DNA of 64,000 nt from Thermoanaerobaculia bacterium. GTDB taxonomy: Bacteria; Acidobacteriota; Thermoanaerobaculia; Multivoradales; UBA5704. Under the pieces are notes generated by a model. That model ran no database searches, was not told where the DNA came from, and was given only the letters and a program-made list of their open reading frames with translations. Made by a program: the position numbers and the translations under genes. Positions 28,561-64,000 of the stretch are shown piece by piece. Numbering within the stretch: the first letter of the stretch is position 1; every line of letters starts with the position of its first letter. The stretch spans positions 65,544 to 129,543 of the forward strand of contig DATLOC010000010.1 in the NCBI GenBank assembly GCA_035536455.1, read 5' to 3'.

Positions 28561-28571
28561 GCCCGGTTCCG

Positions 28572-28600: not shown

Positions 28601-28682
28601 TACCTGCCTATCGTGGCCTGTCAACCCACTCAGGCGGGCAGAGCGGGAATAGCTACCCGGACCCGTGGTGTACACTCCCAGC

Positions 28683-43093: not shown

Positions 43094-44425
43094 ATGAACA
43101 AGCTCGGTCAGCTGCTCGTGACGCGCGGCTGGATCAGCGTGCAGCAACTGACGCGCGCGCTCAAGAACCAGCAGGCCGTTGGCGGCCAGCTCGGCACGTG
43201 CCTGCTCGAGATGGAGGCGCTGAGCGAGGACCTGCTGCTGAAGGGGCTGGCTGAGCAGCTCGGCGTGCCGGCGGCCGGCGTCGACGACCTGCGCAGCGTC
43301 GCGGAGGACGCGCTCGCCCTGCTGCCGCCGAAGGTGGCACGGCGCTGCCGCGCCGTCCCCATCCGCGTCGCCGGCGGGCGGCTCGACGTGGCGATGCTCG
43401 ATCCGCACAACCTCACCGCCCAGGACGAGCTGGCCTTCGCCACCGGCAAGCGGGTGCGGGTGCACGTGCTCCACGAGGCACGCATCCACGAGGCGCTCGA
43501 CCGCTACTACGGCGAGGAGCCGCCGCTGCGCTTCGTCCATCTGCTGGACCGCCTGAACCGCGCGCGCTACCTCTGGGAGCGCGAGTCGCAGGCGGGCGAG
43601 CCGGCGGCCGCGGCCCCGGTCGCGGCGGCGCTCGGCGGCCGGCCGGGGCTCGGCGCGACCGCGCCCGTCCGGACGATCGAGGGCGAGTGGGAGCTGTCCC
43701 TGCCGGAGCTGTCCGAGCCGGCGGCGCCGCCGCCGCCCCGGGACGCCAAGCCGCGGCCGGCGGTCGTCGCCACGCCGGTCCCGAAACCGGCGCCGGCCGC
43801 GAAACCGGCCCCGCCGCCGCCCGCGCCGGCGGAGCCGGAGCCCGCCCGGCCGCGCACGGTGGCGCTCACCGTCTCCGAGCGCGCCGCGCTGGGGGCCGGG
43901 CCGGGAGAGGCGCCACCTTCCCCGAGCCTCGCTTCTCTGCCCGAGCTGGAGGAGGCGCTGACGGCAGCCGCCGGGCGCGACGAGATCGGGCGCCTCCTCG
44001 TCGCCTTCCTGGCGCCGACCTACCGCCGCGTCGCCCTGCTGCAGGTGGCGCGCGAGCGGGTCGCCGGCTGGCTGGCGCAGGGCGAGGGGATCGATCCCGA
44101 GCGCTTCGCGCGCTTCGCCGTCGGCTTCGACCAGCCGTCGGCCTTCTTGAACCTCCGCCAGGGGAGCGGCCTCCACCTCGGCCCGCTCGCCGACATGCCG
44201 GCGCACCGCGAGCTGGCCGCCTGCTGGGGCGGCCAGCTGCCGCGCGAGTGCCTGCTCCTGCCGGTCCGCCTGCGCGACCGGCTGGTGACCGTGCTCTACC
44301 TCGACGCCGCCGGCGGCCCGCTCGGCCGCGTCGACCTCGAGGGGTTGCAGCGGCTGGCGGCGGCGGTGGCGCGGGCCCTGGAGCGCCTCATCCTGCAGAA
44401 GAAGAAGGGGAGCGCCGCACGCTGA
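43094..44425 (+). CDS. MshEN / T2SS-GspE N-terminal-domain protein (probable c-di-GMP-binding adaptor) with a Pro-rich linker and a C-terminal domain of unknown function
   Basis: N-terminus LGQLLVTRGWISVQQLTRALKNQQAVGGQLGTCLLEMEALSEDLLLKGLAEQLGVP matches the GspE-N/MshEN fold. [19 protein letters not shown] linker. Confidence 0.6.
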   Translation: MNKLGQLLVTRGWISVQQLTRALKNQQAVGGQLGTCLLEMEALSEDLLLKGLAEQLGVPAAGVDDLRSVAEDALALLPPKVARRCRAVPIRVAGGRLDVAMLDPHNLTAQDELAFATGKRVRVHVLHEARIHEALDRYYGEEPPLRFVHLLDRLNRARYLWERESQAGEPAAAAPVAAALGGRPGLGATAPVRTIEGEWELSLPELSEPAAPPPPRDAKPRPAVVATPVPKPAPAAKPAPPPPAPAEPEPARPRTVALTVSERAALGAGPGEAPPSPSLASLPELEEALTAAAGRDEIGRLLVAFLAPTYRRVALLQVARERVAGWLAQGEGIDPERFARFAVGFDQPSAFLNLRQGSGLHLGPLADMPAHRELAACWGGQLPRECLLLPVRLRDRLVTVLYLDAAGGPLGRVDLEGLQRLAAAVARALERLILQKKKGSAAR

Positions 44426-44447
44426 GCGGGAACCCGCCGCCCGGACC

Positions 44448-46581
44448 GGTGGACGTCATCGTGCCGGTCTACGCGGCGGCCGAGGAGCTCGCCGCCTGCC
44501 TGGCGAGCCTCGAGCGCCACACCGACCTCCACCGCCACCGGCTGGTCGTCGTCGACGACGCCGGCCCCGGCTTCGATCCGGCGCCGGTCGCGGCGCTGGC
44601 GGCGCGGCTCGCGGCCGCCGCCCCGCCGGCGGGCGCCGGTGCGGACAGCGGCGTCCTCCTGCTCCGCAACGCGAAGCGGCGGGGCTTCGTGGCCAGCGTC
44701 AACCGCGGCATGGCGCTGTCGGGGCGCGACGTCGTGCTGCTCAACAGCGACACGGTCGTGACCCGCGGCTGGCTCGAGAAGCTGCAGGCGGCCGCCCTCT
44801 CGGCGCCGGACGTCGCCACCGCCACGCCGTTCTCCAACCACGCCACCATCTGCTCGCTCCCCCGCTTCCTCGAGATCAACGCCCTCCCCGCCGGCTGGGA
44901 CCTGAACGCCTTCGCCGCGCTGGTCGAGCGCGCGGCGGCGCGCGAGCGCCCGCCCCTCCCCACCGGGATCGGCGTCTGTCTCTACATCCGCCGCGCGGCG
45001 CTCGAGCGCGTCGGTCCGTTCGACGAGCGGGCCTTCGGCCTCGGCTACGGCGAGGAGAGCGACTTCTGCTGCCGCGCCACGGCGGCCGGCTGGCGGCACG
45101 TGCTCGACGACGCGACCTTCATCTGGCACGCCGGCCAGAGCAGCTTCGGGGCGTCGCGGGGAGCGCGCGTGCGCGCCGCCCACCGGGTGATGCGCCGCCG
45201 CCACCCCGGCTACCTGCCGGCCGTGGCGCGCTTCATCGCCGAGGACCCGCTGGCGCCGGCGCGCGAGCGGGTGATCGCGGCGCTGCGGCCGCGCCGGCAG
45301 CGGCCGCCCCGCGGCCCGCGCCGGGTGGTCCACCTCGTCCACGGCTGGCCTCCCTGGAGCCCGGCCGGCACCGAGACCTACGCCCGCGGCCTCGCCCTGC
45401 GCCAGGCCGAGCGGCGGGAGGTGGCGGTCTACGCCCGCTCCGCGGACCCGCGCCGCGGCAAGGGCGAAGCGCTCGAGCTGCTCGACGGCGGCGCCCGGGT
45501 CCGTCTCGTCACCAACAACTTCACGCAGCGCGACCCGCTGTCGCGCAACGCCATCCGCGACCGCGCCTTCGACGCCGACTTCGCGCGCCTGCTCGACGAG
45601 GCGCGCCCCGAGCTGGTGCACGTCCACCACCTGGCCGGCCACGCCTTCTCGCTGACCCGCGCCGCGGCGCGGCGGCGTGTCCCCCTGCTCTACCAGGTCC
45701 AGGACTGGTGGACGCCCTGCGCCCGCGCCAACCTGCTCGACCACCGGCGGCGGCTGTGCAGCGGGCCCGGGCTCGGCAAGTGCGCGGCCTGCCTGCCGCT
45801 CACGCGGCGGCCGCCCGCCGGGCTCTGGAACCGCCTGCTGTATGCCGAGCGCGGGCGCGCGGCGCGCGCCGCCTTTCGCCGCGCCGACGCCTGGCTCATA
45901 GGATCGCACGCCATCCGCGACAGCTACCTCGCGCTCGGGCTGCTGCGCCCCGAGGACCCCGCGTACGTCATCCCGTACGGCGTCGAGACGCCGCCCCGAG
46001 CGCCGCGCCCGACGCGCGCCGAGAGAGACCCGTTGCGCTGCGGCGTCATCGGGTCGCTCATGCCGCACAAGGGGGCGCACGTCGCCGCGGCCGCCTTCCG
46101 CGCCATCGATCCGGCGCGCGCCCGCCTGACCGTCTGGGGGGACCGGACGATCGACCCCGCCTACGCCGCCGAGGTCGAGGCGCTGGGGGGCGGCCGGGTC
46201 GAGATCCGGCCCCCCTTCGCCGAGGCGGAGAAGCCGGCGCTCTTCGCGACGCTCGACCTGCTCGTCGTCCCCTCGCTGGGGCTGGAGTCCTTCGGCCTGG
46301 TGGCCCGCGAGGCGCTCCACCATGGCGTGCCGGTGCTGGCGAGCCGCCGCGGCGCCCTCGCCGAGCTGTGGGCCGACTCGCCGGGCGAGGCGGCGGGCGC
46401 GCTCTTCGACCCCGAGCGCCCCGAGGAGCTGCGCGCCTGGGTCGAGCGGCTGATCGCCGAGCCGGAGCTGCTCGCCGCATGGCGGGCCCGTCTGCCGGCG
46501 GTCAAGGGCATGGACGAGCACGCCGAAGAGATCGAGGAGGTCTACGAGCGGGTGCTGGCAGGGAAGAAGAGGGCGGGGTAA
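44448..46581 (+). CDS. Bifunctional glycosyltransferase: N-terminal GT2 fused to C-terminal GT1/GT4
   Basis: VIVPVYAA...VVVDDAG...NSDT (GT-A/GT2), then ...LVVPSLGLESFGLVAREALHHGVPVLASRRGAL (GT4 ExxxxxxE region). Start uncertain: GTG at 44448, or CTG overlapping the upstream stop. Confidence 0.8.
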
Positions 46582-46588
46582 GGAAGAA

Positions 46589-47830: not shown

Positions 47831-49266
47831 GGCGCCGGCTCCTCGCGCCGGGCGACCGCGATCATCCCCAGGCCCGGCCAGGGCAGGACGCGGTCGGCGC
47901 GGCGCACCAGCGGCACCAGCATGTTGAAGAGCTTGAGCTGTACGCGGCTGAAGTGACGCCGCTTGAGCGCCACGCCGTTGATCCACCAGCCGGGGACGGC
48001 GGCGCGGTTGAAGTCGCGTACCGCCTCCAGCCGGAACCCGGCCGCGGCGAGCTCCCGTTCGAGCATCGGGCGGTCGTAGCGGGTGCGATGCCCCAGCACC
48101 TCGTCGAGGCTGGAGTAGAGGCGCTGCCCGGCGGGGACGTAGAGCACGAGCCGGCCGCCGGGGGCGAGCGCGCCGTGCATGTTGCGCAGCGCCGGCAACG
48201 GGTCGCGCACGTGCTCGAGGACGTTGAGGCAGATCACGGTGTCGAAGGCGCCGCGCCAGGGTGCGAGGTCTTCCGGCTCCTCGACGTCGACGCGGGCGAC
48301 CTCGAGGTAGGGCTTGCCGAGCGCCAGGTTGCGCAGGTAGGCGAGGTAGTGCGGGTTGATGTCGCTCGCCAGGTAGCGGTCGCGCGGCAGCAGCCACGAG
48401 GTGATGTTGCCGATCCCGGCGCCGATCTCCAGCACCCGCGCGCCGACGTGCGGCGCGATCGACTCCGCCATCCAGCGGTTGAAGCGCTGCGCCCGCTCCA
48501 GGCTGTGCAGGATGTGCGAGCCGTACTCGTCCTCGGCATAGAGGTCGTCGACGAGCTTGTACTTGAGGATGGCCTTGATGGCCTTGAAGCCGTCGCGCCA
48601 GCCGATCTTCTTCCCCTCGCGGTAGGTGCGCCCGAGGTAGCTGATCGGCACTTCGAAGATGCGCACGTCGCGCTTGGCGATCTTGGCGGTGATCTCGGGC
48701 TCCATCGCGAAGTCGTTCGAGCGGATCGGGATCGACTTGAGCAGCGGCGCCCGGAACATCTTGTAGCAGGTCTCCATGTCGGTGAGGTTGAGGTCCGTCG
48801 CCCAGTTGCTCAGACCGGTGAGCAGCCGGTTGCCGAGCGCGTGCCGGTGGTAGAGGACGCGCCGCCGCTCGCTGGGCAGGAAGCGCGAGCCGTAGACGAC
48901 GTCGGCGCCGTCCTCGAGGAACGGCCGCACCAGCCGCGCGTAGTCGCGCGGGTCGTACTCGAGGTCCGCGTCCTGGAAGACGATGAGGTCGCCCGTCGCC
49001 TCGGCGATGCCGCGGCGGATGGCGCTCCCCTTCCCCTGGTTGCGCCCCTGCTCGAGCAGGCGCACCCGGTCCGGGTGGGCGGCGGCCAGTTGGCGGAGCA
49101 CGTCCAGGCTGCCGTCGGTCGAGCCGTCGTCGACGAGCAGGAGCTCGAGCTCGCGCACCTCCGGCATCTCGACCGCCAGCACCCGGGCGACGAGCTCGCC
49201 GACCAGGTAGCGCTCGTTGTAGACCGGGACGACGACGGAGAGCTTGGGCGCGAACTCGCGCTTCAC
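47827..49266 (-). CDS. Bifunctional GT2 glycosyltransferase (DPM1/GtrB-like) fused to a class I SAM methyltransferase
   Basis: LSVVVPVYNERYLV...LLLVDDGSTDGS...QDADLEYDP (GT2), then VLEIGAGIGNITSWL (MTase motif I). Confidence 0.85.
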   Translation of the reverse strand: MKREFAPKLSVVVPVYNERYLVGELVARVLAVEMPEVRELELLLVDDGSTDGSLDVLRQLAAAHPDRVRLLEQGRNQGKGSAIRRGIAEATGDLIVFQDADLEYDPRDYARLVRPFLEDGADVVYGSRFLPSERRRVLYHRHALGNRLLTGLSNWATDLNLTDMETCYKMFRAPLLKSIPIRSNDFAMEPEITAKIAKRDVRIFEVPISYLGRTYREGKKIGWRDGFKAIKAILKYKLVDDLYAEDEYGSHILHSLERAQRFNRWMAESIAPHVGARVLEIGAGIGNITSWLLPRDRYLASDINPHYLAYLRNLALGKPYLEVARVDVEEPEDLAPWRGAFDTVICLNVLEHVRDPLPALRNMHGALAPGGRLVLYVPAGQRLYSSLDEVLGHRTRYDRPMLERELAAAGFRLEAVRDFNRAAVPGWWINGVALKRRHFSRVQLKLFNMLVPLVRRADRVLPWPGLGMIAVARREEPAP

Positions 49267-49380
49267 ATCTGGCCTCGCGGGGCGGAGGGTAGCATCGGCG
49301 CCGAGAGGGTGCGCCCGGCCAGAAGCAGAGCGGCCGCCCGCAGGCGGCCGCTAGACCCGGAGGGTGGGAGGGCGAGAGGG

Positions 49381-49890: not shown

Positions 49891-50060
49891 CTCCTAGGGT
49901 TTCGAGCGCCGAGAATACCACGCCAGTCGGGTGCAGGGTGTTGTCGGCGTCACAAACACAACCCCCCTGGGGGGAATTCCACAGCAAGGTTCCTGACTCC
50001 TAGTCCCATACTAGCATAAACCAAGGAGGGCTGAGGCTGAGCGTACCCCCACGCCTGTCC

Positions 50061-50936
50061 GTGGTCGTGCCGACGCACGACACTCGGGAGCTGACCCTGC
50101 GCTGTGTCACCGCGCTCCAGGGGTCGCGGGAACCCCTGGAGGTCCTCGTCGTGGACGACGCCAGCTCCGACGGCACTGGCGACGCCCTGGCCGCCCGCTT
50201 CCCTCATGTCGCGGTGCTCCGCTGCCCTGCCAGGACGGGCTTCACGCGCGCAGCGAACAGCGGGCTCGCGCGGGCGCAAGGAGAGATCGTCCTCCTCCTC
50301 AACAGCGACACCGAGGTCGAGCCTGGCGCCCTGACGGCGCTTCTCGCCGCTTTCGACGCGGATCATCGTCTGGGAGCGGCGGGGGGCTTGCTGCACTACC
50401 CCGACGGGAGCGCGCAGTGGAGCGGGGGGCGCGAGCCCGGCCTGTTCTGGCTGGCGGCGCTGGCGAGCGGCCTACCCAGGGCCCTGGCGCGATGGCCGGC
50501 CTACCGGCGGTGGAAGCCGGTGGGTGCCCGCGCCGGCGGGAGAGTGGACTGGGTGACCGGCGCGGCGCTGGCGGTTCGTCGTCGTGCTCTCGCCGAGGTG
50601 GGCTCCCTTGACGAGCGCTTCCGCTTCTACGCCCAGGACCTGGATCTCTGCTTGCGGCTGCGCGATGCGGGTTGGGGGATCGCGCTGCTCGCCGACTTCC
50701 GCGTCCTCCACCATCACGGCGCCACGATCGGCAAGGAGGCGGGCGCGGCCGAAGGGCGCCAGCACGCCGAGCTCCTCTGGCGCGACCTCTTGCGGTGGGC
50801 CGCCAAGAGACATGGGGAGCGGTGGGCTCGGCGGGCGGCTCTTGCCCTTTGGCTCGGCGGGACGGCGCGTCTCCTGTCGCTGCGCTTGCGCGATGTCTTC
50901 GCAGGGGGCTCTGGAGATCGACCGCATCGGAAGTAG
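50061..50936 (+). CDS. Glycosyltransferase family 2. The annotated GTG start may be wrong: a consensus SD is followed by an in-frame CTG at 50037.
   Basis: VVVPTHDTREL...VLVVDDASSDGT...LNSDTEV (GT2). Upstream AAGGAGGG (50023-50030), then 7 nt, then CTG AGC GTA CCC CCA CGC CTG TCC, which would add a typical (M)SVPPRLS N-terminus. Confidence 0.8.
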   Translation: MVVPTHDTRELTLRCVTALQGSREPLEVLVVDDASSDGTGDALAARFPHVAVLRCPARTGFTRAANSGLARAQGEIVLLLNSDTEVEPGALTALLAAFDADHRLGAAGGLLHYPDGSAQWSGGREPGLFWLAALASGLPRALARWPAYRRWKPVGARAGGRVDWVTGAALAVRRRALAEVGSLDERFRFYAQDLDLCLRLRDAGWGIALLADFRVLHHHGATIGKEAGAAEGRQHAELLWRDLLRWAAKRHGERWARRAALALWLGGTARLLSLRLRDVFAGGSGDRPHRK

Positions 50937-50951
50937 TAACCTCACGCTCGC

Positions 50952-53765: not shown

Positions 53766-53856
53766 CCTTCCGGTCCGGGGCGGACGGTGCGGTGGCGGAC
53801 CGCAGCGCAGATCTGCTAGCGTTAACCGTCGCTTTGGCCAATCGAGAAACTACCGC

Positions 53857-54603: not shown

Positions 54604-55577
54604 CACGAGGCATGATCGACCGGGTGTTCGCCAGGTCGGCTCAAGCCCTCCTCCTGCTGGGGGTCTGCAGCGCGCTCCTCCTCACCGGCTGCGGTCGCCG
54701 GACTGAGGACGCCGCCGTGAAAAGAACCGCCTCACCCGCGGATTTCGACGGCGACAAGGTCTCCGACTGGTTCATCTACCGGAGCGGTGGCTGGGTGTAC
54801 TACGGACCCTCTACAGGGACGGATGCCCTGCCCGCGGTGAGGACTGAAGCGCCCGACTCGAACTGCATCCCCGCTCCGGCCGACTACGACGGTGACGGCA
54901 AGATCGATCTCTCGCAACAGTGCGGGGGAGTCTGGCACTTCTACGATGCGGACGGCACTTATCGCAAGGGCATTTGGACGGGAGGGCTGCCGGGGGACCT
55001 CCCCGTCCCTGCCGATTACGACGGCGACGGCGATGCCGACATCGTGGTCTTCCGCGCCGGCTCCTGGATGTTTTATGACTTCGCGAGCGGCACCTGCACG
55101 CGCGGCCTCTGGACCGGTCCGGGAGCCGGGGGCATACCCATTCCCATGGACTACGACGGGGACGGACGCGCCGACTTCACGGTCTACCAGAACGGCGCTT
55201 GGCATTTCTACAACGACGACGGCACCCACGACAAAGGAATCTGGACGGGCGGCGTCGCTGGGGACGTGCCGGTACCCGGGGATTACCACGGCGTCGGCCG
55301 GGAGGAAGTGGTGATCTTCCGTGGCGGATCCTGGCTGTTCTATAGCCTGGAAACACAGAAGCAAACTTCAGACAGCGTATGGACCGGCGCCAACGCTTCT
55401 CCCGACACACCGTTGCAGCCGGCTCCCCTGGACCTCGACGGCGATGGCACGCTGGAGTTCACCGTCTATGCCGGAGGACCCTGGCACTTCTACGAGGATG
55501 ACGGCACGTATCGCAAAGGTGTTTGGACCGGCGGCGTGGCCAACGACCAGCCGATTTCCCGGCGCCAGCTCCCTTAA
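54599..55577 (+). CDS. Lipoprotein with FG-GAP-like repeats (DYDGDGxxD + G-W-x-FY blades; integrin-alpha-type beta-propeller)
   Basis: Signal and lipobox MTRGMIDRVFARSAQALLLLGVCSALLLTGC. Seven or more repeats of the pattern PxDYDGDG(K/R)xDxxVxxxGxWxFY...G.WTGG. Confidence 0.75.
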
Positions 55578-57955
55578 CCGCACCCGTTCTGCCGCGTACG
55601 TTCCCAACCGATGACATCGACGCGCGATGCCAAGTGAGGCGTCCCCTTTTCGCCGAACCAAGCGACTAGCTCCTGGAGCAGATCGAGCTGGAGGTCGTAG
55701 CTACCCGGAATGACTGGCGTGATGACACGTGCCACCAGGGTGATCGACTCGCCAGGGGAGAGGCGTCGTGGGAGGTCGATCCGGTTGCCCTTACTTCCGA
55801 TCATCCGGCCTTCCCGCTCCCACCAATACCCAAGCCGTATCGCGTAGCGCCCGTCGGCGCCGGTCGAGGCGCGGTTGGGCCAGACGTGCGTCCCGGCGTT
55901 CTTGATCGTCACCAGGACCGGGACTACCTCCCCCGCCGCGACGCGTCCCGGGATCTTGGAATGAAGCCACGTCAGCTGGAAGGCGCTGTCGGGGAGAGGC
56001 CCGAGCGGCTCCACCTGAGCGCGCGACTTGACCGGTGAAGCGAGCGCAAGCTCCTCCACGAGAGCCGACACCCTCGCGCCGAGGAGCGCCAGGTCGTAGC
56101 GCTCGCAGACGTGACGGCGCGCCTCCTCGCCGAGCGCCGCGCGCACCGACTCGTCGTCGAGGAGAGCCTCGATCTCACGTTCCATCGCCGGCAGGTCGAG
56201 ATAGGGGACCACGCGTCCCGCCTCGCGGCAGAACTCCGGGGCTCCTCCCGCCCGGTCGAAGCAGAGGGCAGGCTTGCCGAGCGCGGCCGCCTCCAGCAAG
56301 ACGAGCGGGAAAGGGTCCTCGCGTGAGGTCAGGAGGAAGAGGTCGGCGGCGTCGATTACCGGGAGCGGATCAACGCGCTCGCCCAGGAAGAAAATCCGCG
56401 GCGGGTGCCCGAGCTTGGCCAGGTCATGGTTCAGCCGCAGCTCCTCGATGGACGAGGAGGTCCCCCCTACCCAAGCGAAGGCGACATCGGGGCGGCGGGC
56501 GGTAAGGACGTGCCCCACTTGGATGAAGAGATCCGTCCCCTTCCGCCAGTCTGCCGTCCCCGCCCCGACGACGATCCGCGTTTCCGGAGTGAGCCCCAGC
56601 TCGGCTTTGAGCGCGCGGGCGTGTTCGGGTGTCGAGCGCGCGGCGAGCGCCGCCGTGTCGACCGCCTCGTGGAAGACCACCACTTTCTCTGCGGGGATAC
56701 CCTCGTTCTCGACGAGGTTCGAACGAACCGCCTCCGAGCAGGCGACGAAGCGCGAGGTGCGCCGTGCCTGCTCGCGGAAAAGCTCCCTGCCGAAGGCCGA
56801 GAGGGCGTACGAGAGCTCATGCACGTGGCTGATGACCGGCAGCTCGTCGTGCCCGAGGCGGGCAAGGAACGAGCCGTTCGTCGCCGTGTTTGCCCAGACG
56901 AGCGAGACGCTGTCGCAGAAGGCGGGATCGAAGAGCGACTCAGTGGTCACGACGGTGTCCCCGACGGCGCGGAACTCCGCTTCGAGCGGCCCCTCGTCCC
57001 GCAGGACGAAGCGAGGCTCGACACAGCCGTGGCTCTTCAGCCAGGTGGCGAGCCTGAGGAGCATGAGCGGCGCGCCGGTGCGCGTCGCCCCGTGAGAGAG
57101 GAAGAGGACCTGCCGCGCGGGCGGCGTCGGGGCCGCGATCGCTCTGAGCGCGGTGCACGCCTCCGAGAACGCCTCGAGCGCCTCGGGGCTCTCTCCCTCG
57201 TCCACCAGGCGACGCGCGACGGCCGCTACTTCCTCCGCCGCGGCGGCGAGCGCCTCGCCGGCGTCCTCTGGCGGCGGGGGCCGCCGCCAATGGCGCCCCG
57301 AGGGAGAGAGAAACGACATGAGGACGCCGCGGGCATCCTCCGGTGAGACGGGAAATGAGAGCTCGAGTGCAGCGGACAGCCTCGAGAGCTCGGCGACGCC
57401 GTCCTCGAGGAGCCGGTCGAGGCTCGAGAAGGCTCGCGGACGACCGCGCGTTAGGCGCTCGGCCTCCGAGACGTGCCGCTCCCAGAGCGCGAGCGCCTCG
57501 CGCGTCGGGACGGCGCTCCGCACGGCGAGCGAGCGGACCACCTCCCATGGGGATCGAAAGACGAGAGCGAAGCGACGCTCGACGCCGAGATCGTCGAGAA
57601 GCTCTTCCCACAGCGGCAAGAGGACCGAGAGGCGCGGGTCTTTCACTCCCCACAGCGGAACATCCGCGAACTCTCTCCGCAGCACCCCAGCGAGCCTCTC
57701 CCTGGCCGCGCGAGCCTCTGGCCGCTCGCGCCAATCGGCGGGGAGCGGGGCCAGGTCGAGGTGCGAAGCGCCGAGCGCCGCGAGGAGCTCGTCGTGGATC
57801 TCGACCACTTCGCGGAGCTCCCAGAAACCGCGCTCGTTGTCCGGACCAGGGGGGAGCAGAGGCCCGCCGAACGAGACTCCCAAGTGATGGAGCGCCCCCG
57901 CCAGCGCGGAGGTGCCGCTCCGGTGCATCCCCAGGACAATGACAGCGATGCCCAT
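55574..57955 (-). CDS. Sulfotransferase domain fused to GT4 glycosyltransferase and a C-terminal domain of unknown function
   Basis: N-terminus MGIAVIVLGMHRSGTSALAG (PAPS 5'-PSB-like motif, Sulfotransfer_3-like). Central ...DLFLLTSREDPFPLVLLEAAALGKPALCFD (GT4). Start taken at the ATG at 57955. An upstream ATG at 58012 is also possible. Confidence 0.6.
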   Translation of the reverse strand: MGIAVIVLGMHRSGTSALAGALHHLGVSFGGPLLPPGPDNERGFWELREVVEIHDELLAALGASHLDLAPLPADWRERPEARAARERLAGVLRREFADVPLWGVKDPRLSVLLPLWEELLDDLGVERRFALVFRSPWEVVRSLAVRSAVPTREALALWERHVSEAERLTRGRPRAFSSLDRLLEDGVAELSRLSAALELSFPVSPEDARGVLMSFLSPSGRHWRRPPPPEDAGEALAAAAEEVAAVARRLVDEGESPEALEAFSEACTALRAIAAPTPPARQVLFLSHGATRTGAPLMLLRLATWLKSHGCVEPRFVLRDEGPLEAEFRAVGDTVVTTESLFDPAFCDSVSLVWANTATNGSFLARLGHDELPVISHVHELSYALSAFGRELFREQARRTSRFVACSEAVRSNLVENEGIPAEKVVVFHEAVDTAALAARSTPEHARALKAELGLTPETRIVVGAGTADWRKGTDLFIQVGHVLTARRPDVAFAWVGGTSSSIEELRLNHDLAKLGHPPRIFFLGERVDPLPVIDAADLFLLTSREDPFPLVLLEAAALGKPALCFDRAGGAPEFCREAGRVVPYLDLPAMEREIEALLDDESVRAALGEEARRHVCERYDLALLGARVSALVEELALASPVKSRAQVEPLGPLPDSAFQLTWLHSKIPGRVAAGEVVPVLVTIKNAGTHVWPNRASTGADGRYAIRLGYWWEREGRMIGSKGNRIDLPRRLSPGESITLVARVITPVIPGSYDLQLDLLQELVAWFGEKGTPHLASRVDVIGWERTRQNGCG

Positions 57956-58072
57956 CGTAGCGTCAGGCCTTGGCTGCGAGGATCTCCAGGGTGCGCGCTC
58001 GTCGCGACCCATCGACGCGGCGCATTCTCGCGCGCCCGCCGCGCCTGGACAAGGTGACCTGCCGCTCTCGCC

Positions 58073-58798
58073 TCAACCCAGCCACCTGCGGCGCAGCGCC
58101 CAGAGGTACCAGCGCAGGTAGTGCGGGAGCCAGGCGAGGAGGCGGAAGCGGCTCTTGCCGGCGCTGCGGTCCCGCCAGGTGGCGGGAACCTCCTCGACGC
58201 GCTCGCCGCCGAAGTGCGCCTTCACCGTGAGCTCCAACGCCAAGCAGAACCCCGCCTTGCTCTCGATGGGCGTGCAGGCGAGGAAGTCGCTGCGGTAGGC
58301 CTTGTAGCTGTTCGTGGGGTCGCGCGTCGGCAGCCCGGCCAAGCGGTGGAGGGTGAGGCCGGCGGCGCGGCTGAGCAGCCCCTTCAACGGGGGTCCGCCG
58401 ATCTGCCGGCCGCCCGGCATGTAGCGGCTGGGGGAGACCACCGCCGCTCCCGACTCGGCGCGGGCCACGATCTCTTCCACGATCCGGAAGTCGTCCGAGA
58501 GGTCCGCCATGATGACGACCACGACCGGGGTACGAGCGGCCTGCATCCCGGCCTCGATGGCGTAGCGGGCGCCTCGGCCCAAAGTGTTGTGGACGAGGCG
58601 AACCACCGGCGGCTTGTCGTCCGCGGGCAGGGCGCTGAGGGCCGGCAGCGTCCGGTCCTCCTCCATGTCGTAGCAGACCAGCAGCTCGTAGCCCGGCGGG
58701 AACGACTCGCGGACCGCGCGGCACAGGGGGCCGATGTTCTCGGCTTCGTTGAAGACCGGCACCACCACCGAGTAGCGGAGAGGCGCCGGGTCGCTCAC
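58073..58798 (-). CDS. Glycosyltransferase family 2 (polyprenol-phosphate sugar transferase-like)
   Basis: YSVVVPVFNEAENIGPL...LLVCYDMEED...VVIMADLSDD. GTGA overlap with the upstream methyltransferase stop. The longer ORF-track N-terminus is read-through. Confidence 0.8.
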   Translation of the reverse strand: MSDPAPLRYSVVVPVFNEAENIGPLCRAVRESFPPGYELLVCYDMEEDRTLPALSALPADDKPPVVRLVHNTLGRGARYAIEAGMQAARTPVVVVIMADLSDDFRIVEEIVARAESGAAVVSPSRYMPGGRQIGGPPLKGLLSRAAGLTLHRLAGLPTRDPTNSYKAYRSDFLACTPIESKAGFCLALELTVKAHFGGERVEEVPATWRDRSAGKSRFRLLAWLPHYLRWYLWALRRRWLG

Positions 58799-59556
58799 GG
58801 CTTGCGGCCCCAGGTGACCGCGAAGCTGCCGAACCAGCGACCCAGCCCGACCGCTTCCCACAGCCGGTCGGCCCGGTTGTAGAGCGACAGCAGCGCATTG
58901 AAGCCCCTGGGGGCCACCGCGCGGTAGGGCAGGTCCGATTGGCAACGCTGGCCGATCGCGCCGTAGCCCGCCGCCGAGAAATCCTCGCGCAGCGCCCGCG
59001 GCAGCAGGGGCCGCTCGTCGGGGCTCACCCCTTCGGCGCGATAGAACGGGCTCTTCGGATGCCGGAAGAGCAGCATGGCAGGATGCAGGAGGTTGGGATC
59101 GAAGGCGAAGACTAAACCACCCGGCCGCAGTACGCGCGCCGCTTCGGCGAGGGCCCTCCGGCGATCGGCGATGTGGTGGAGCACGCTGCTGAAGGCGACG
59201 ACGTCGAAGCTCTCGTCGTGAAAGGGAAGGCGGAGCGCGTCGCCCTGGAGCCACGACGAGTCGAGAAAACGGCGGCGGGCAAGGCGCAGGGCGCCGAGAG
59301 AGAGGTCGATGCCGGCGTAGCGCGAGCAGCGGTCGACGTAGGTACGCCGCGATCGACCCGTGCCGCAGCCGACGTCGAGGACGCTCAGGCCGATCTCGGG
59401 GGCGACGGCGGCGAAGCGGCTCGCCAAGGTCTGCCAGCCGCGGTCGGTGAAGGGGTTGAAGTCGCCGCTCGCTTCGACGATGCGGTCGAAATGGCGGCCC
59501 TCGCGCCGGGCGGCCGACGAGCGGTTACCGCCTTCTGCTGTCGGGGGTGGGCACAA
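58795..59556 (-). CDS. Class I SAM-dependent methyltransferase (Methyltransf_11)
   Basis: VLDVGCGTGRS motif I. Start chosen at TTG 59556, preceded by AGGAG plus 7 nt. The ORF-track TTG at 59595 would collide with the divergent gene. Confidence 0.65.
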   Translation of the reverse strand: MCPPPTAEGGNRSSAARREGRHFDRIVEASGDFNPFTDRGWQTLASRFAAVAPEIGLSVLDVGCGTGRSRRTYVDRCSRYAGIDLSLGALRLARRRFLDSSWLQGDALRLPFHDESFDVVAFSSVLHHIADRRRALAEAARVLRPGGLVFAFDPNLLHPAMLLFRHPKSPFYRAEGVSPDERPLLPRALREDFSAAGYGAIGQRCQSDLPYRAVAPRGFNALLSLYNRADRLWEAVGLGRWFGSFAVTWGRKP

Positions 59557-59594
59557 ACCGCAACTCCTATACCATCCGCCCGCCGGCAAGCGCA

Positions 59595-60551
59595 ATGCTC
59601 TTCCTCCGCAAGCGCCCCACGCTCGAGGTCCACGTCCCGGTGAGTCCCACCCGGACGTTCCTCAACATGGCGCACTACCTGACGCGCTCGCTGCGCGCCC
59701 GCGGGGGCCGCTACCGCGACGCGCCGGTCGTCCTGACCGTCGGCGCGGAAAGGCGCGATCCCGACCTCGCTCGCAACCACCCCTGGATGGCCGCCAACGG
59801 CGTCGAGGTCCGCTGGATCGACGAGGCGCTGTTCGCGCGCGAAACCTGGTATGCCACCGCGTGCGAGCGCTTCCGCTACGAGTTCAAGAGTGATGTAGTG
59901 CTGGCGCTGGACGCCGATACCCTGATCGCCGGCCCTCTCGATGAGCTGGTCGAAGAGGCCCAGCGGACGGGGGCGGTGTGCGGCGTCGTGGCGCACGTGC
60001 CGCCGCTATCGACTCGCGAGCAGTGGCAGACGATCTATCGCGCCTGCGGCCTGGGCGAGCTCGAGACCCCCTGCGAGCACACCGGCTGGGGCTACATGTT
60101 CCAGAACGAGTCGCTGCGCCATTGCCCGCCGTACTTCAACCTCGGCGTGCTGGCCGCCTCGGCGCCGGCGATGCGGGACATCGGCAGCGCTATCTACGAG
60201 CTGATGGCGGCCGTCGACGCCGTCCACCGCACGAGCTTCCGCGTCCAGTTGGCGGTCTCGCTCGCGGTGACGCGGTTCGGTCTGCCCTTCCGCGCCCTGC
60301 CCTTTCGTTGGAACTTCGTCAACGATCCCCTGCTCGAGGCGCTCCATGCCGCGGAGCTGGGGGACGTCCGCATCATCCATCTCTTGCGCAAGCATCAGGT
60401 CGACAAGGAGGAGCTCTACTCCAGCCTGGACAACGTCGAGGCGATGCTCGCCCGCACCGATCTGCGGGTGATCAACGCGCTCGCCCAGCGATTGCTCGGC
60501 GAGATCCACCCGCGGGTCAAGGCCGAGGACGCCGCCCGGCCCGGCGCATGA
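59595..60551 (+). CDS. Putative GT-A-fold nucleotide-sugar transferase (DxD motif), hypothetical
   Basis: ...FKSDVVLALDADTLIAG... (DxD). No strong family match. ATG at 59595; GTG at 59547 is an alternative. Confidence 0.45.
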   Translation: MLFLRKRPTLEVHVPVSPTRTFLNMAHYLTRSLRARGGRYRDAPVVLTVGAERRDPDLARNHPWMAANGVEVRWIDEALFARETWYATACERFRYEFKSDVVLALDADTLIAGPLDELVEEAQRTGAVCGVVAHVPPLSTREQWQTIYRACGLGELETPCEHTGWGYMFQNESLRHCPPYFNLGVLAASAPAMRDIGSAIYELMAAVDAVHRTSFRVQLAVSLAVTRFGLPFRALPFRWNFVNDPLLEALHAAELGDVRIIHLLRKHQVDKEELYSSLDNVEAMLARTDLRVINALAQRLLGEIHPRVKAEDAARPGA

Positions 60552-61591
60552 TCGCCTTCGTCGAGGCCAAGCGTCCGGACTACGAGCACGTCCGGGACCT
60601 GCTCGCGCGCAGTGAGGCGAGCGGTGTGTGGTCGAACTTCGGCCCCCTGTCCCTGCAGCTCGAAGAGACCGTGACGGAGCTGTTGGCCCTACCGCGCGAC
60701 CGCCGGGTGGTGGCCTGCGCCAGCGGCACCGCGGCCCTCCACGGCCTCGTTCAACTCTACGAGCACCTCGCCGGGCGTCCGCTGCGCTGGGTCGTCTCGG
60801 CCTTCACCTTCTACGCCCAACGGCAGGGTCCGCTCGCCGCCGCGCGGGTGCTCGACTGCGACGCACAGGGGTTCCTCGATCTCGATGCGCTCGCCGCCCT
60901 GTCCACCGACTCGTACGACGGCATCGTGGTGACCAACCTGTTCGGGACGGCGGCCCACGTCGAACGCTACGAGGACCTCGCGGCGCGCGCCGGCAAGGTC
61001 CTCCTCTTCGACTCGGCCACCTGCTTCGGCTCGCGGCACCCCGGCAGGCCCTTCGGCACCCTCGGCGCGGGGGAGCTCTTCAGCTTCCATCACACCAAGC
61101 CTTGCGGCTTCGGTGAGGGAGGGTGCGCCGTGGTGCCTGCCGAGCTCGAGGACACGTTCCGCTCGCTGATCAATTTCGGGCTCTACCGGGGGATCGACAC
61201 CGGCGCGCGATCGAGCAATGGCAAGATGTCCGACGTGGCCGCCGCCTTCATCCTCGACCGGCTCTCTCGTCGCGACGCGATCCGCACGGCCCACCTGCAG
61301 CAGTTCCGGCGTTTGGCCGGCATTGCCCGCGCTCTCGGCCTCGAGCTCCTCGTCGACGGCGGGAACGAGGGGTCGTTTCCGAGCCTCGTGGCGGTCCTCT
61401 TTCCCCATCCGGTGGGGCTCGAGCGGCTGTCAGGCGGCCCGCTGGTCGTTCACAAGTACTACCGGTCGGTGGCGTCCCGGCCTCGAGCCGACGCGCTCTA
61501 CGCGCACGTGGTGTGCTTTCCGTGCCATAGCGGCGTGGTCCAGGTCCCGGACGACGAGCTGCTCACGGCCTTGAGTGTCTTGGCTCAATAA
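60548..61591 (+). CDS. DegT/DnrJ/EryC1/StrS-family PLP-dependent aminotransferase (sugar aminotransferase)
   Basis: ...VVACASGTAALH...GELFSFHHTKPCGFGEGG (catalytic Lys region). ATGA overlap with the upstream gene. The ORF-track extension to 59978 is read-through. Confidence 0.8.
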   Translation: MIAFVEAKRPDYEHVRDLLARSEASGVWSNFGPLSLQLEETVTELLALPRDRRVVACASGTAALHGLVQLYEHLAGRPLRWVVSAFTFYAQRQGPLAAARVLDCDAQGFLDLDALAALSTDSYDGIVVTNLFGTAAHVERYEDLAARAGKVLLFDSATCFGSRHPGRPFGTLGAGELFSFHHTKPCGFGEGGCAVVPAELEDTFRSLINFGLYRGIDTGARSSNGKMSDVAAAFILDRLSRRDAIRTAHLQQFRRLAGIARALGLELLVDGGNEGSFPSLVAVLFPHPVGLERLSGGPLVVHKYYRSVASRPRADALYAHVVCFPCHSGVVQVPDDELLTALSVLAQ

Positions 61592-61598
61592 CGGAGGG

Positions 61599-62168
61599 AT
61601 GGGTATGGGAACGCTCTCTGCCGATCAGATTGCCCAGCTCGGTCTCGCCGGCGTAGGTACCGACGTCGCGATCAGCGATCGCTGCTCGATCTACGGCGCC
61701 GGCTCGATCAGCATCGGAGACCACGTGCGGATCGACGACTTCGCCATCCTCACCGCGCGCGAGCCGGTGGCCATCGGCTCTTACGTCCACATCTCCGCGT
61801 TCGCCTTCCTGAGCGGTCCGTTCGGCCTCGTCATCGAAGACTTCGTCAACGTCGGGCCGCGGGCCGCGCTGCTCTCGGGAAACGACGACTTCTCGGGTCA
61901 ATGGCTTCCCGGCCCGGTCGTCCCGGAGGAGCTGCGCAACGTACAGGGAGGTTGCATCCACCTCGAGCGGCACACCATCGTGGGGACGCATAGCGTCGTC
62001 CTCCGCGGGGTGAGCTTCGGCGAAGGGGCGGTCGTTGGTGCCCTCTCGCTGGTCAAGGAGTCGCTCGCCCCTTGGGGAATCTATGGCGGGATTCCTGCGC
62101 GGCTAATCCGACCGCGTGGCCGCGGACCTCGAGAGCTTGCGGCTCGCCTCACCACAGGATCGGCCTAG
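61599..62168 (+). CDS. Left-handed beta-helix (hexapeptide-repeat) acetyltransferase (WbbJ/PglD-like sugar O-/N-acetyltransferase)
   Basis: Repeated [LIV]GxxxxI hexapeptides (ISDRCSIYGAGSISIGDHVRIDDFAIL..., IVGTHSVVLRGVSFGEGAVVGALSLV). Confidence 0.75.
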   Translation: MGMGTLSADQIAQLGLAGVGTDVAISDRCSIYGAGSISIGDHVRIDDFAILTAREPVAIGSYVHISAFAFLSGPFGLVIEDFVNVGPRAALLSGNDDFSGQWLPGPVVPEELRNVQGGCIHLERHTIVGTHSVVLRGVSFGEGAVVGALSLVKESLAPWGIYGGIPARLIRPRGRGPRELAARLTTGSA

Positions 62169-62244
62169 AGGGGTAAGCGGCCGCAGGCTCCCTCCCGGCC
62201 TCGTTTCGGAGGCCGGGAGGGGATGCGAAACAGCTCGCTTGGCC

Positions 62245-63162
62245 CTACTGCTCGCCGCCCGCGGTGAGGGGCGGGACGATGACGGCGTCGGAGTCGTTGT
62301 TCCCGAACGAGAAGCAGTTGACGCCGGCCGTAGTCACGGCGGTCGTATTGCCGGAGAAACTGCTGCGGCCGACACGGACGGTGCCGTTCGAACAGACGAT
62401 CCCGGTCAAATTGTTGGCTACCGTGCTTCCCTCGATGTTCAGCACCGCGCTGCCGTTGACGACCGAGAAGCCGGCGGCCGAGTTGCCCGCGGCGACGCTG
62501 TTCTTCACCGAGGCCGTAGAATTGCCTTGATTCTTGAAGCCGAAGACGTTGTGCTCCATCCGAACGTTGTCGAGCGAGGCCTTCACGACGGCGCTGCCGG
62601 TAGGGTTCACGAAGATGCCGCCGCCGGTGCCCTGGCCGTTGTTGCGCACGATCGTGTCCTTGATGTAAACCTGGGTGGTGCCGGCCGCGGTCGTCGCGAT
62701 CTCGATCCCCGAGCCGTTGGCCCCGCGGAAATTGTTGACCGTGCACTTCTCGACGTGAAGGGACGCCAGGGCGCCGAGCGCCTTGATGCCCACCAGGCCC
62801 GTGCCCAACCCCTCGATGTCGAGGCCGCGCAGCACCACGTGGCTGGTCGACGTGGCGTTGATGACGATGGCGTTGGTGCCGGACACCAGCACGCCGGCCT
62901 CAAAGCCTTCGCTGGAGATGGTGATCGACTTGGTGATCGTCACCCCGCCGAAGCCACCGGGATCGAGGACGTTGATCTCTCCCGCGGTCGCGGTCTTCGA
63001 GATGGCGCCCGCAAAGGTCTTGCAGGGTGCCGTCCGACTGCAGGGGTTGGCGTCGTCGCCGACGCCCGAGACCCAGGTACGGGTCGCCTGCGCCTGCGCG
63101 GACGCGGGAAGAAGGACCAGAAGGGCCGCGATCGCGGCGAGACACAGCACAGCTCTCTTCAT
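62245..63162 (-). CDS. Secreted right-handed parallel beta-helix (pectate-lyase-fold) protein
   Basis: ATG at 63162 with AAAGGAGAG SD. Signal MKRAVLCLAAIAALLVLLPASAQA. N/G/T/S-rich beta-helix repeats (VKNSVAAGNSAAGFSVVNGSAVLNIEGSTVANN). Confidence 0.7.
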   Translation of the reverse strand: MKRAVLCLAAIAALLVLLPASAQAQATRTWVSGVGDDANPCSRTAPCKTFAGAISKTATAGEINVLDPGGFGGVTITKSITISSEGFEAGVLVSGTNAIVINATSTSHVVLRGLDIEGLGTGLVGIKALGALASLHVEKCTVNNFRGANGSGIEIATTAAGTTQVYIKDTIVRNNGQGTGGGIFVNPTGSAVVKASLDNVRMEHNVFGFKNQGNSTASVKNSVAAGNSAAGFSVVNGSAVLNIEGSTVANNLTGIVCSNGTVRVGRSSFSGNTTAVTTAGVNCFSFGNNDSDAVIVPPLTAGGEQ

Positions 63163-63246
63163 TTGGAACTCTCCTTTGCTTAATCCAATGAGCATAAGTG
63201 GTTGAGCGCCGACGGGTTAAGGGCGCACCATACCACAGGTTGGAGC

Positions 63247-64000
63247 TCAGATGCGTCCCGCCGCGATCTCGCGTTCCACCCAGGGAATGACCTCGTCGAG
63301 TACCGTGGAAAGCGTCGTGGTGGCCTCGAAGCCCAGCGCCTCCCGAGCCTTCCGAGTCTCCGGCACCCGCATCTGCACGTCGTGGGGGAAGGGCGGGTCG
63401 GAGACGTGGCGGAACGGCTTCCCGTGGCCGTGGACCTTGTGCCAGATCAGCTCGGCCAGGTCGAGCACGGTGGTGGAGACCGGCGTCGAGAGGTTGAAGT
63501 CCTCGTTTTCGGCCGCCGGATGCAGCATCGCCGTGAGGATCCCTCGGGCCAAGTCGCCGCCGTACGTGTAGCAGCGCACCTGATTGCCGGCGCCGAGGAC
63601 GTGGAGCGGGTCCTGTCCCTTGAGCACCTTCTGCACCAGGTCGGGCACGACGTGGCTCATCGCCAGCTTGACGTTGCCGCTGCGAATCTCCTTGTCCCCC
63701 AGGGCGCGGCCTTCGCCGATGCCGACGCAGTTGAACGGGCGGCAGATGGTGAAGGGGAGCCGATACTGCTCCCAGGCACCGCGGGCGAAGTACTCGCAGG
63801 CCAGCTTCTGGAAGCCGTAGGTGCTGGAAGGCGGTGGACACTGCCGCTCGTGCCCCTCGGGGCTGGGGAAGACCGTGGCGTTCTCGAACACCATGCTGCT
63901 CGAGAGCACCGTGATCTTCTGCAGGCGGTGATGGCGATGAGCGTGAAGGGCGGCGTCGAACGCCGTCGCCGTGATGCGCTCATTCTCGGCCAGCAGGTCG
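63247..64000 (-). CDS. NAD-dependent epimerase/dehydratase (extended SDR). C-terminal part only; the 5' end lies beyond the window.
   Basis: The frame stays open to the window edge (...LHAHRHHRLQKITVLSSSMVFEN...). Motifs ...CRPFNCVGIGE...VPDLVQKVLKGQDPLHVLGAGNQVRCYTYGGDLARGI are typical of sugar-nucleotide epimerases/reductases. Confidence 0.8.
   Translation of the reverse strand, partial: DLLAENERITATAFDAALHAHRHHRLQKITVLSSSMVFENATVFPSPEGHERQCPPPSSTYGFQKLACEYFARGAWEQYRLPFTICRPFNCVGIGEGRALGDKEIRSGNVKLAMSHVVPDLVQKVLKGQDPLHVLGAGNQVRCYTYGGDLARGILTAMLHPAAENEDFNLSTPVSTTVLDLAELIWHKVHGHGKPFRHVSDPPFPHDVQMRVPETRKAREALGFEATTTLSTVLDEVIPWVEREIAAGRI

Follow-up and report, generated by a model that had tools for sequence, protein, structure and literature searches.

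We analyzed a 64,000-nucleotide stretch of a contig from a Thermoanaerobaculia bacterium (the window; about 70% G+C) and, in particular, the putative envelope-glycan locus at its right end. Genes were called from the frame pattern of G+C content at third codon positions (GC3) and translated, and the domains were checked with Pfam and NCBIfam (Table 1). Positions 43,094 to 64,000 hold 17 genes in at least six units that alternate in strand. The first unit (forward) encodes an MshEN protein, a fusion of glycosyltransferase (GT) domains of families GT2 and GT4, and a GT4 protein. The second (reverse) encodes a GT2-methyltransferase fusion and a secreted protein of 169 amino acids (aa). A GT2 protein, a 937-aa GT, a methyltransferase, and an FG-GAP lipoprotein make up the third (forward). 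The fourth (reverse) encodes a sulfotransferase-GT4 protein, a small GT2, and a methyltransferase, and the fifth (forward) encodes a 318-aa protein, a DegT aminotransferase, and an LbH acetyltransferase. The sixth (reverse) encodes a beta-helix protein and a short-chain dehydrogenase/reductase (SDR), whose gene is cut by the end of the window at position 64000.

An earlier reading of this DNA from its letters alone (the sequence-only reading) had described a glycan-biosynthesis cluster, and Pfam and NCBIfam confirm the domain content that it gave. Eight GT domains are firm by Pfam and a ninth is probable, which agrees with its count of eight or more. The three fusions it named (GT2-GT4, GT2-methyltransferase, and sulfotransferase-GT4) are all real, and the 937-aa protein is probably a fourth. 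The DegT aminotransferase, the LbH acetyltransferase, and the epimerase (the SDR) that it listed each have a Pfam match. It also counted three or four methyltransferases that use S-adenosylmethionine (SAM). Three such domains lie in the interval, one at the C-terminus of the GT2-methyltransferase protein and two in proteins of their own. A possible fourth is a 392-aa protein outside the interval (34877-36055, reverse strand), between the genes for PBP1A and rplI. Because that position is kept in all relatives examined, we assign it to a conserved housekeeping block and not to the glycan cluster. Similarly, two of the secreted proteins that had been claimed (FG-GAP and beta-helix) lie inside the interval, but the TPR protein lies outside it. 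(The third secreted protein inside the interval is the 169-aa protein.) Most of the E-values are between 1e-10 and 1e-35, with weaker ones for the LbH and beta-helix domains, and all of these put the domain assignments far beyond chance level.

We think it likely that these genes are the left part (the first 21 kb) of a mosaic envelope-glycan island of over 30 kb in an uncultured bacterium of the Thermoanaerobaculia. The sequence-only reading had treated them as one cluster. The alternation of strands does not fit a single transcript, and neither does comparison with relatives bear out a conserved block.

First, four close relatives match the DNA collinearly, at 92-96% identity, between 32 kb and about 49,246-49,250. 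There, where the GT2-methyltransferase gene has its 5' end, the collinearity breaks.

Second, one close relative could be read across the rest of the stretch. (Its island, of more than 33 kb, is covered by the contiguous loci L087 and L089 on one 1.43-Mb contig.) Locus L089 shares 50038-53716, 58036-59542, and 62534-64000 with the window, at 82-92% DNA identity. It is without 53717-58035, or cassette A (methyltransferase, FG-GAP lipoprotein, and sulfotransferase-GT4), and without 59543 to about 62240, or cassette B (318-aa protein, DegT, and LbH). This relative also has other genes, about 13 kb of them, at a point where the window lacks any. Other relatives have different gene sets again within the first 10 kb past the core.

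Third, GC3 is about 0.93-0.98 in the core, versus 0.79-0.91 in most of the genes from 49.4 kb on. (The exception is the small GT2, at 0.95.) A repeat search found no repeats flanking the cassettes, only the internal repeats of the FG-GAP gene.

The locus is therefore probably better described as a mosaic of three layers than as one unit. As judged from sequence comparison, the first layer is a class-conserved core of four GT genes: GT2-GT4, GT4, the Dpm1-like GT2-methyltransferase, and the 937-aa protein (GT8-like and GT4). These four are clustered in distant genomes as well, at 55-79% identity (L090 and L091; the layout of L091 is from Pfam domains). The GT2-methyltransferase gene is the most conserved of the island, with 95-99.6% identity in close relatives and 79% in L090. 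For GT2-GT4 the corresponding values are 92-95% and 64%, and orthologues of the 937-aa protein (900-938 aa) are widespread in Thermoanaerobaculia. The second layer is a backbone that appears to be common to close relatives: GT2, the small Dpm1-like GT2 with its methyltransferase, the secreted beta-helix protein, and the SDR. The third layer is the two cassettes. The 169-aa protein has no match in Pfam or NCBIfam, and has homologues (40-44% identity) at the equivalent position in L086 and L087. In L086, a 98%-identical relative, GT2-GT4 is broken into short ORFs (3666-5700; DNA identity 95%, protein alignment segments about 50%). This is probably a frameshift error in the assembly and not a pseudogene.

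These three layers amount to a first map of the anatomy of an envelope-glycan locus in Thermoanaerobaculia. This class of Acidobacteriota is widespread in soils and sediments and has hardly been cultured. In the map, a class-wide core stands apart from cassettes that vary among close relatives, much like the loci for O-antigen serotypes. In other words, the locus is an uncharacterized example of a familiar, mosaic type of surface-glycan locus, in a poorly known class.

We then considered the gene at the left edge of the interval. The sequence-only reading placed an MshEN gene at the head of the cluster and proposed that it makes polymer synthesis responsive to cyclic di-GMP (c-di-GMP). The gene is exactly where it was reported, and its product does have an MshEN domain (PF05157; 5.4e-20, 71.6 bits versus a cut-off of 23.1). 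The NCBIfam model for the c-di-GMP motif, NF053729, also matches (46.8 bits versus 38). The C-terminal domain has a pLDDT of about 90 in an AlphaFold2 model and matches GAF structures with a TM-score of 0.72. MshEN domains are found at the N-termini of V. cholerae MshE, T. thermophilus PilF, and M. xanthus PilB (PMC5013675; PDB 5htl, 6f8l, and 3jc8), and residues 1-145 of our protein align to these N-terminal domains in PDB with E from 1e-15 to 8e-30. Unlike those proteins, it has a disordered linker and a GAF domain instead of an ATPase domain. The consensus for MshEN is two tandem 24-residue motifs, RLGxx(L/V/I)(L/V/I)xxG(L/V/I)(L/V/I)xxxxLxxxLxxQ, with a 5-residue spacer (Wang et al. 2016; PMC5013675). 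Motif 1 (K3-Q26) fits a relaxed consensus and the spacer (Q27-G31) has 5 residues. Motif 2 (Q32-Q55) retains the LG, L..L, and Q, but Q32 replaces the arginine and E41 (D in the family) replaces the glycine of the turn ([GAS]). Most members of the family have arginine at the first residue of motif 2; the change from R to Q is in the window's subclade. Binding of c-di-GMP by the MshEN-GAF protein is plausible, given these motifs, but not assured.

Is MshEN-GAF part of the glycan system? The family, with its linker and GAF domain, is class-wide in Thermoanaerobaculia, and its N- and C-terminal domains are near-invariant (loci L002-L084). Upstream of it, the order prs-tRNA-spoVG-hypothetical-TPR is nearly universal in 79 genome loci; synteny of the TPR gene with MshEN holds in about 70 of the 79, and the two are always divergent. 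We used 16 glycan-island proteins as queries against the 65 MshEN loci that have at least 3 kb of downstream sequence. Just 5 of these loci, from three sources (one being the window's own contig), have any homologue of a glycan-island protein downstream, and the other 60 have none. Elsewhere, the genes downstream of MshEN are those for HU (in 67 loci), for an M50 peptidase (in 64), and for dtd and ssb (both in 57). Two large genomes keep the four core GT genes clustered, but at about 238 kb and 548 kb from the MshEN gene. Because MshEN is syntenic with the conserved block and glycan genes follow it in so few loci, a dedicated c-di-GMP switch is not supported. Most likely, MshEN-GAF belongs, class-wide, to the conserved block beside the island and is not one of the island's components. 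These gene orders are most simply explained by an insertion of the island between MshEN and HU that took place in a single subclade. Gene adjacency by itself misled the regulatory interpretation: MshEN-GAF is a conserved neighbor.

Still, within that subclade the arrangement is suggestive. The GT2-GT4 gene lies 23-35 bp past MshEN on the same strand, with no terminator-like site or hairpin between them. A strong promoter-like site lies upstream of MshEN; 42.8-62.4 kb contains two such sites, and this is by far the stronger (shuffled sequences gave a mean of 0.4; only the match to the consensus was scored). By these features, within the subclade the first two GT genes are probably transcribed together with MshEN, from its promoter. 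One might go further and suppose that MshEN is a dedicated c-di-GMP receptor after all, and that it activates the adjacent GT2-GT4 protein post-translationally and in trans. The precedent is E. coli NfrB, a GT2 exopolysaccharide synthase that is activated by c-di-GMP through a C-terminal MshEN domain (PMC8669469; see also PMC5013675). The MshEN-GAF protein adjoins a GT2-containing enzyme, its c-di-GMP motif scores above the cut-off, and it has a partial NCBIfam match to the MshEN region at the C-terminus of NfrB (6.6e-12). But it is a separate soluble protein with a GAF domain, not an NfrB-type fusion, and the neighboring GT2-GT4 protein has no membrane segments. Furthermore, the association with GTs is confined to one subclade, the synteny of MshEN is with TPR and HU, the glycan core of two large genomes is far from MshEN, and motif 2 deviates at Q32 and E41. 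An Rfam scan of the window found no riboswitch of any kind, for c-di-GMP or otherwise. We consider a dedicated receptor to be unlikely, and we attribute the link between MshEN and the glycan genes mostly to an accident of neighborhood.

The most useful lead from this locus is the sulfotransferase-GT4 protein of cassette A. The sequence-only reading assigned its HRSGTS domain to the sulfotransferases. A direct sequence search with this domain found no match in PDB. A search of PDB with a profile of the family was set aside: it gave weak matches to sulfotransferases (E of about 0.02) amid coiled-coil noise from the tails of the homologues. Because these sequence searches were weak or empty, we relied on structure prediction and Foldseek. 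The AlphaFold2 model of the protein has a pLDDT of 91.7 and a pTM of 0.88. The top 24 Foldseek matches in PDB all have the sulfotransferase fold: TPST1 and TPST2, SULTs including SULT2A1, the sulfotransferase domain of olefin synthase (OLS-ST), Stf0, Teg14, and retinol dehydratase. These 24 are structures that were solved with 3'-phosphoadenosine 5'-phosphosulfate (PAPS) or its desulfated product PAP, and they match with probabilities of 0.98-1.0, E from 3.6e-4, and TM-scores of about 0.35-0.5.

The domain has hundreds of homologues, and their sequences agree with the structural matches. In an alignment of 31 homologues, there is no variation at G28-M-H-R-S-G-T-S35, K124, R153, or S161, and almost none at E65. 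The GMHRSGTS segment fits the 5'-phosphosulfate-binding loop (5'-PSB), and R153 and S161 fit the R-x7-S (RxxxxxxxS) motif that binds the 3'-phosphate (3'-PB). K124 and E65 are candidate catalytic residues. (We assigned these motifs by inspection, against the motifs of TPST and SULT enzymes, and not by superposition.) In Pfam, 23 of the 31 homologues match Sulfotransfer_3 (PF13469) at E of 0.01 or less (best 9.4e-9), and 5 of the 31 match Sulfotransfer_1 (PF00685). The window's own domain thus has the fold and the PAPS motifs, but it does not reach the Pfam gathering threshold itself. Overall, a PAPS-type sulfotransferase fold looks real in this model, and the original assignment stands.

The fusion to GT4 is not a one-off. 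A HMMER search of 1.84 billion protein cluster representatives found this exact protein and one 43%-identical homologue of equal architecture. Among the top 147 representatives, 58 pair an N-terminal domain of the HRSGTS family with a GT4 domain; most of these are giant proteins (745-2041 residues). Because so many of the top representatives have this pairing, we view the fusion as a recurrent and uncharacterized architecture. At the other end of the protein, the C-terminal domain (55574-56030; aa about 660-812) has a weak match to N_BRCA1_IG in Pfam (E of 0.052) and is present in 9 of the top 147 matches. In other large proteins (P0246, P0316, and P0340), 6-12 copies of it stand in tandem. 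This suggests that the domain, of about 150 aa, is an immunoglobulin (Ig)-like binding module.

What would the island make? We propose that the soluble GTs would work at the cytoplasmic face of the membrane and build up a glycan that is attached to a lipid carrier. Two Dpm1-like GT2s would make polyprenyl-phosphate sugars, with which polytopic membrane proteins would decorate the glycan on the other side of the membrane. The SAM methyltransferases would O-methylate the glycan, and DegT and LbH of cassette B would provide an acetamido-dideoxy sugar. The sulfotransferase-GT4 protein may add a sugar and sulfate it with PAPS, possibly as a cap at the end of the chain. From the genes, it is reasonable to predict a product that is methylated, sulfated, acetylated, and aminated. 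The sulfate and the amino sugar would be variable decorations carried by cassettes, and not properties of the conserved glycan.

The two Dpm1-like enzymes (the N-terminal domain of the GT2-methyltransferase and the small GT2) have their best NCBIfam matches among synthases of the Dpm1/ArnC/GtrB/PpgS/AglJ kind. Both differ from those synthases in scoring far below the equivalog cut-offs and in lacking C-terminal membrane helices, and one is fused to a methyltransferase. (For the GT2-methyltransferase, AglJ is the best match and ArnC and PpgS-type models follow.) In one relative, a GT2 gene is followed by a DUF2304 gene, a pair that resembles PpgS and Rv3632 of mycobacteria. The DegT protein has both the family profile and, in its translation, the SFHHTK motif with the lysine that would bind pyridoxal phosphate. 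That lysine marks the aminotransferases of the DegT family; members that are dehydratases have histidine. Its best NCBIfam match is DesI-like (7.2e-28) and those of the LbH protein are of the WcaF, WbbJ, and NeuD/VioB types, all below their cut-offs. In the 937-aa protein, a single-sequence search with the N-terminal domain found no match in PDB. A profile search matched only LgtC (GT8; E of 0.18), with the invariant D103xD105 aligned to the DxD of LgtC, so a GT8-like domain is probable. The middle region of this protein is apparently duplicated, as read by eye from the translation. The 318-aa protein of cassette B has no match in Pfam, NCBIfam, or PDB, and is possibly GT-A-like, given a motif read by eye.

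By hydropathy, each of the 17 products has one hydrophobic segment at most, so the interval encodes no integral membrane proteins. The membrane steps are probably encoded just past position 64000, because L089 encodes polytopic proteins beyond the shared SDR. (After the SDR, L089 encodes UDP-glucose dehydrogenase, proteins with 7-8 transmembrane segments and no Pfam assignment, a methyltransferase, and a GT2.) More broadly, the islands of relatives encode several polytopic membrane proteins of 443-887 aa, with 6-11 hydrophobic segments and no Pfam assignment. These are candidates for the polymerases, flippases, or GT-C enzymes of the glycan system.

Several observations weigh against our interpretation of the island. 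We saw no gene for an initiating phosphoglycosyltransferase, flippase, polymerase, ABC transporter, or synthase in 43-64 kb. The interval, in which the island is truncated by the end of the window, does not contain a complete polysaccharide locus of the Wzx/Wzy-, ABC-, or synthase-dependent type. Because no gene for initiation, flipping, polymerization, or export is visible, we infer the carrier, the pathway type, and the label "polysaccharide." No enzyme of the interval reaches an NCBIfam equivalog cut-off, which bears on the identities of the sugars. As for sulfation, the first 300 residues of the sulfotransferase-GT4 protein match only the P-loop of Sulfotransfer_4 (17.2 bits versus a gathering threshold of 22.8), the Foldseek TM-scores are at best about 0.5, and we saw no genes for PAPS synthesis among the scanned genes of the window. 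The absence of the cassettes was seen in one relative, L089, over this stretch. Finally, in the closest subclade, each locus that extends past MshEN has GT genes there, so that a local functional link may exist.

The missing polymerase and exporter would be less surprising if the locus glycosylated proteins, such as S-layer proteins, lipoproteins, or other secreted proteins. The Dpm1/AglJ-like GT2s would then provide lipid-linked sugars, and the FG-GAP, beta-helix, and 169-aa proteins would act as substrates or partners. The genes for these three secreted proteins lie in among those for the enzymes, and AglJ, the best NCBIfam match of the GT2-methyltransferase (2.3e-26, below the cut-off), is an S-layer N-glycosyltransferase. 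But the family matches are all below their cut-offs, and we recognized no oligosaccharyltransferase (of the PglB, PglL, or AglB type) in the window or in the domain lists of the relatives, where the polytopic proteins lack Pfam assignments. Also, eight or nine GT domains and a class-wide core better suit a long or complex polymer. We view protein glycosylation as improbable.

It is even harder to credit that the product is an intracellular storage or chaperone polysaccharide, akin to the polymethylated methylglucose lipopolysaccharides (MGLP) and methylmannose polysaccharides (MMP) of mycobacteria: the enzymes of 43-64 kb are all soluble and include three methyltransferases and several GT4 domains, but the island also encodes proteins with signal peptides, Dpm1-like GT2s that imply lipid-linked donors for extracytoplasmic steps, DegT/LbH amino-sugar branches (which are typical of surface glycans), and, in the relatives' continuation, polytopic membrane proteins.

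Returning to the envelope glycan, we asked where else the sulfotransferase family occurs. The sequence-only reading had remarked that sulfotransferase-GT fusions and such a density of methyltransferases are uncommon in bacterial O-antigen or exopolysaccharide loci and reminiscent of the methyl/phosphate terminators of polymannans. The context of homologues is in keeping with this remark, but the window is not: we found no homologues of Wzm, the nucleotide-binding domain of Wzt, or Wzt_C in the window or in the loci of 8 relatives. In the cultured organism Rhodanobacter geophilus, a homologue with 47% identity (L092 7784-11293) lies directly after wzm and wzt, whose product has Wzt_C as a C-terminal glycan-binding domain; GT genes come after the homologue in this rml-type locus. 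The order wzm-wzt-sulfotransferase is also seen in at least 11 of the 45 metagenome loci with enough upstream sequence (from 80 loci in total). This group (for example L114, L119, L120, L133, L143, and L172) includes ORFs of 1000-1500 residues that contain the sulfotransferase. The slot after wzm-wzt is that of the chain terminator gene wbdD in E. coli O9a.

WbdD terminates the O-antigen chains of E. coli O9a, whose assembly depends on an ABC transporter, and combines a kinase/methyltransferase with a coiled coil. In WbbB of Klebsiella O12 and Raoultella, a terminating transferase for Kdo (3-deoxy-D-manno-oct-2-ulosonic acid) is fused to polymerizing GTs. Similarly, the window's protein has an N-terminal transferase for a small group or terminal residue, followed by a helical linker and a GT module, all in one polypeptide, and other members of the HRSGTS family, some stand-alone and some giant and multidomain, occupy the wbdD position. 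It differs in that its catalytic fold is that of a PAPS sulfotransferase, and not of a kinase, methyltransferase, or GT99, and in having no wzm, wzt, or Wzt_C nearby, as an ABC-dependent locus would. Also, whereas WbdD has a coiled-coil ruler, this protein has a two-helix hairpin of about 45 residues; many of its homologues have long linkers or coiled-coil tails. We tentatively suggest that the HRSGTS family may be an unrecognized class of chain-end caps, which would end polymers with sulfate. The form seen here, a compact sulfotransferase-GT4-Ig-like protein, would add the last sugar of an envelope glycan found class-wide and would sulfate it. Its cassette could be swapped, and would thereby set the surface chemistry of each strain. 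If this is true, it would be a new terminating chemistry for ABC-transporter-dependent polysaccharide assembly and a genetic marker for sulfated bacterial glycans. The searchable literature held nothing relevant on sulfate-capped O-antigens or on sulfotransferases in O-antigen termination; a near miss is an unexplained ORF with a sulfotransferase domain adjoining wzt in Aeromonas salmonicida.

Another bacterial glycan locus that pairs GTs with PAPS-type sulfotransferases is the xss cluster of Synechocystis. Its sulfotransferases stand alone and its export is of the Wzx/Wzy type. In the window, the sulfotransferase is fused to GT4 and lies in a strain-variable cassette with no export genes visible. 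The xss cluster directs the synthesis of a sulfated exopolysaccharide, synechan (PMC8205485).

Table 1. Features of the window and of the relatives' islands. Coordinates are window positions unless a locus is named.
Feature	Coordinates	Strand	Evidence and remarks
Ser/Thr kinase-TPR protein	4143-7205		Adjoins conflict-like run
CHAT-nSTAND NTPase	7634-9580		Conflict-like run
524-aa protein	11188-12762		No family given; conflict-like run
CHAT-NACHT protein	12755-14893		Conflict-like run
Caspase-domain protein	14902-16956		Conflict-like run
312-aa ORF	26171-27109		No family
tRNA gene between prs and spoVG	39690-39760	-	Sole match to Rfam within the window
Secreted TPR protein, 664 aa	41033-43027	-	TPR_2 7e-33; signal-peptide-like N-terminus; divergent from MshEN gene; conserved neighborhood, not island
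Sigma-70-like promoter site, TTGCCA-18-TATAAT	42993-43022	+	11/12 consensus matches; about 70 bp 5' of MshEN start codon
MshEN (1-145), Pro/Ala-rich disordered linker, GAF (about 280-443)	43094-44425	+	Candidate c-di-GMP receptor
Bifunctional GT2-GT4, 710 aa	44449-46581	+	GT2 3.7e-12, GT4 2.2e-16; core; public gene call begins at 44461
GT4, 413 aa	46589-47830	+	Glyco_trans_1_4 6.9e-11; core, conserved in relatives
Dpm1/ArnC/AglJ-like GT2 fused to class I SAM methyltransferase, 479 aa	47827-49266	-	GT2 7.9e-35, Methyltransf_12 1.6e-17; core
Small secreted protein, 169 aa	49381-49890	-	One N-terminal hydrophobic segment; semi-conserved beside GT2-methyltransferase gene
GT2, 291 aa	50061-50936	+	Pfam 2.7e-23; backbone; 84% identity in L089
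937-aa protein: probable GT8-like N-domain, middle region, C-terminal GT4	50952-53765	+	GT4 5.2e-12; class-wide core
SAM methyltransferase, 248 aa	53857-54603	+	Methyltransf_23 4.4e-12; cassette A; no DNA or protein match in L089
FG-GAP repeat lipoprotein	54612-55577	+	Lipobox LTGC; FG-GAP_3 1.4e-13, internal repeats; cassette A; missing in L089
Predicted sulfotransferase fold (aa 20-245), helical hairpin (249-293), GT4 (about 296-655), Ig-like C-domain (about 150 aa); 812 aa	55574-58012	-	GT4 part 1.5e-19; cassette A; public gene call begins at M20 (57955)
Small Dpm1-like GT2, 241 aa	58073-58798	-	Pfam 1.8e-16; backbone; 93% identity in L089; overlaps upstream methyltransferase gene by 4 bp
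SAM methyltransferase, 253 aa	58795-59556	-	Methyltransf_11 3.1e-27; backbone; 91% identity in L089
318-aa protein	59595-60551	+	No family; LDADTL motif read by eye; cassette B; missing in L089
DegT/DnrJ/EryC1-family PLP (pyridoxal phosphate) sugar aminotransferase	60548-61591	+	Pfam 6.3e-30 (cut-off 19.8 bits); cassette B
Left-handed beta-helix (LbH, hexapeptide) acetyltransferase	61605-62168	+	Hexapep 3.8e-7; cassette B
Secreted right-handed beta-helix protein	62245-63195	-	Beta_helix 4.1e-6; signal-peptide-like segment; backbone; 75% identity in L089
SDR epimerase/dehydratase	63247-64000	-	Epimerase 1.4e-20; N-terminus past window end; backbone; 82% identity in L089
Polytopic membrane proteins of relatives	L002 18591-21254; L089 2949-5108, 18006-19739, 20414-22216		Hydrophobic segments
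Polytopic membrane proteins of relatives	L090 17435-18766; L091 2802-4757, 17413-18798, 19692-22354		Hydrophobic segments

Elsewhere in the window, 7634-16956 is a run of genes that resembles a conflict system, adjoined by a kinase gene (Table 1). The region from 24700 to 28600 has lower G+C content (0.62-0.68). It includes an ORF (24863-25894) whose translation, by eye, resembles an IS110-type transposase, as well as the 312-aa ORF of Table 1. A degenerate tandem repeat lies at 28263-28541, just upstream of a small gene (28665-29096); it has a periodicity of 21/42/63 bp and 13.5 copies of GGGAAGCTTCGCTTTCCAAAA.

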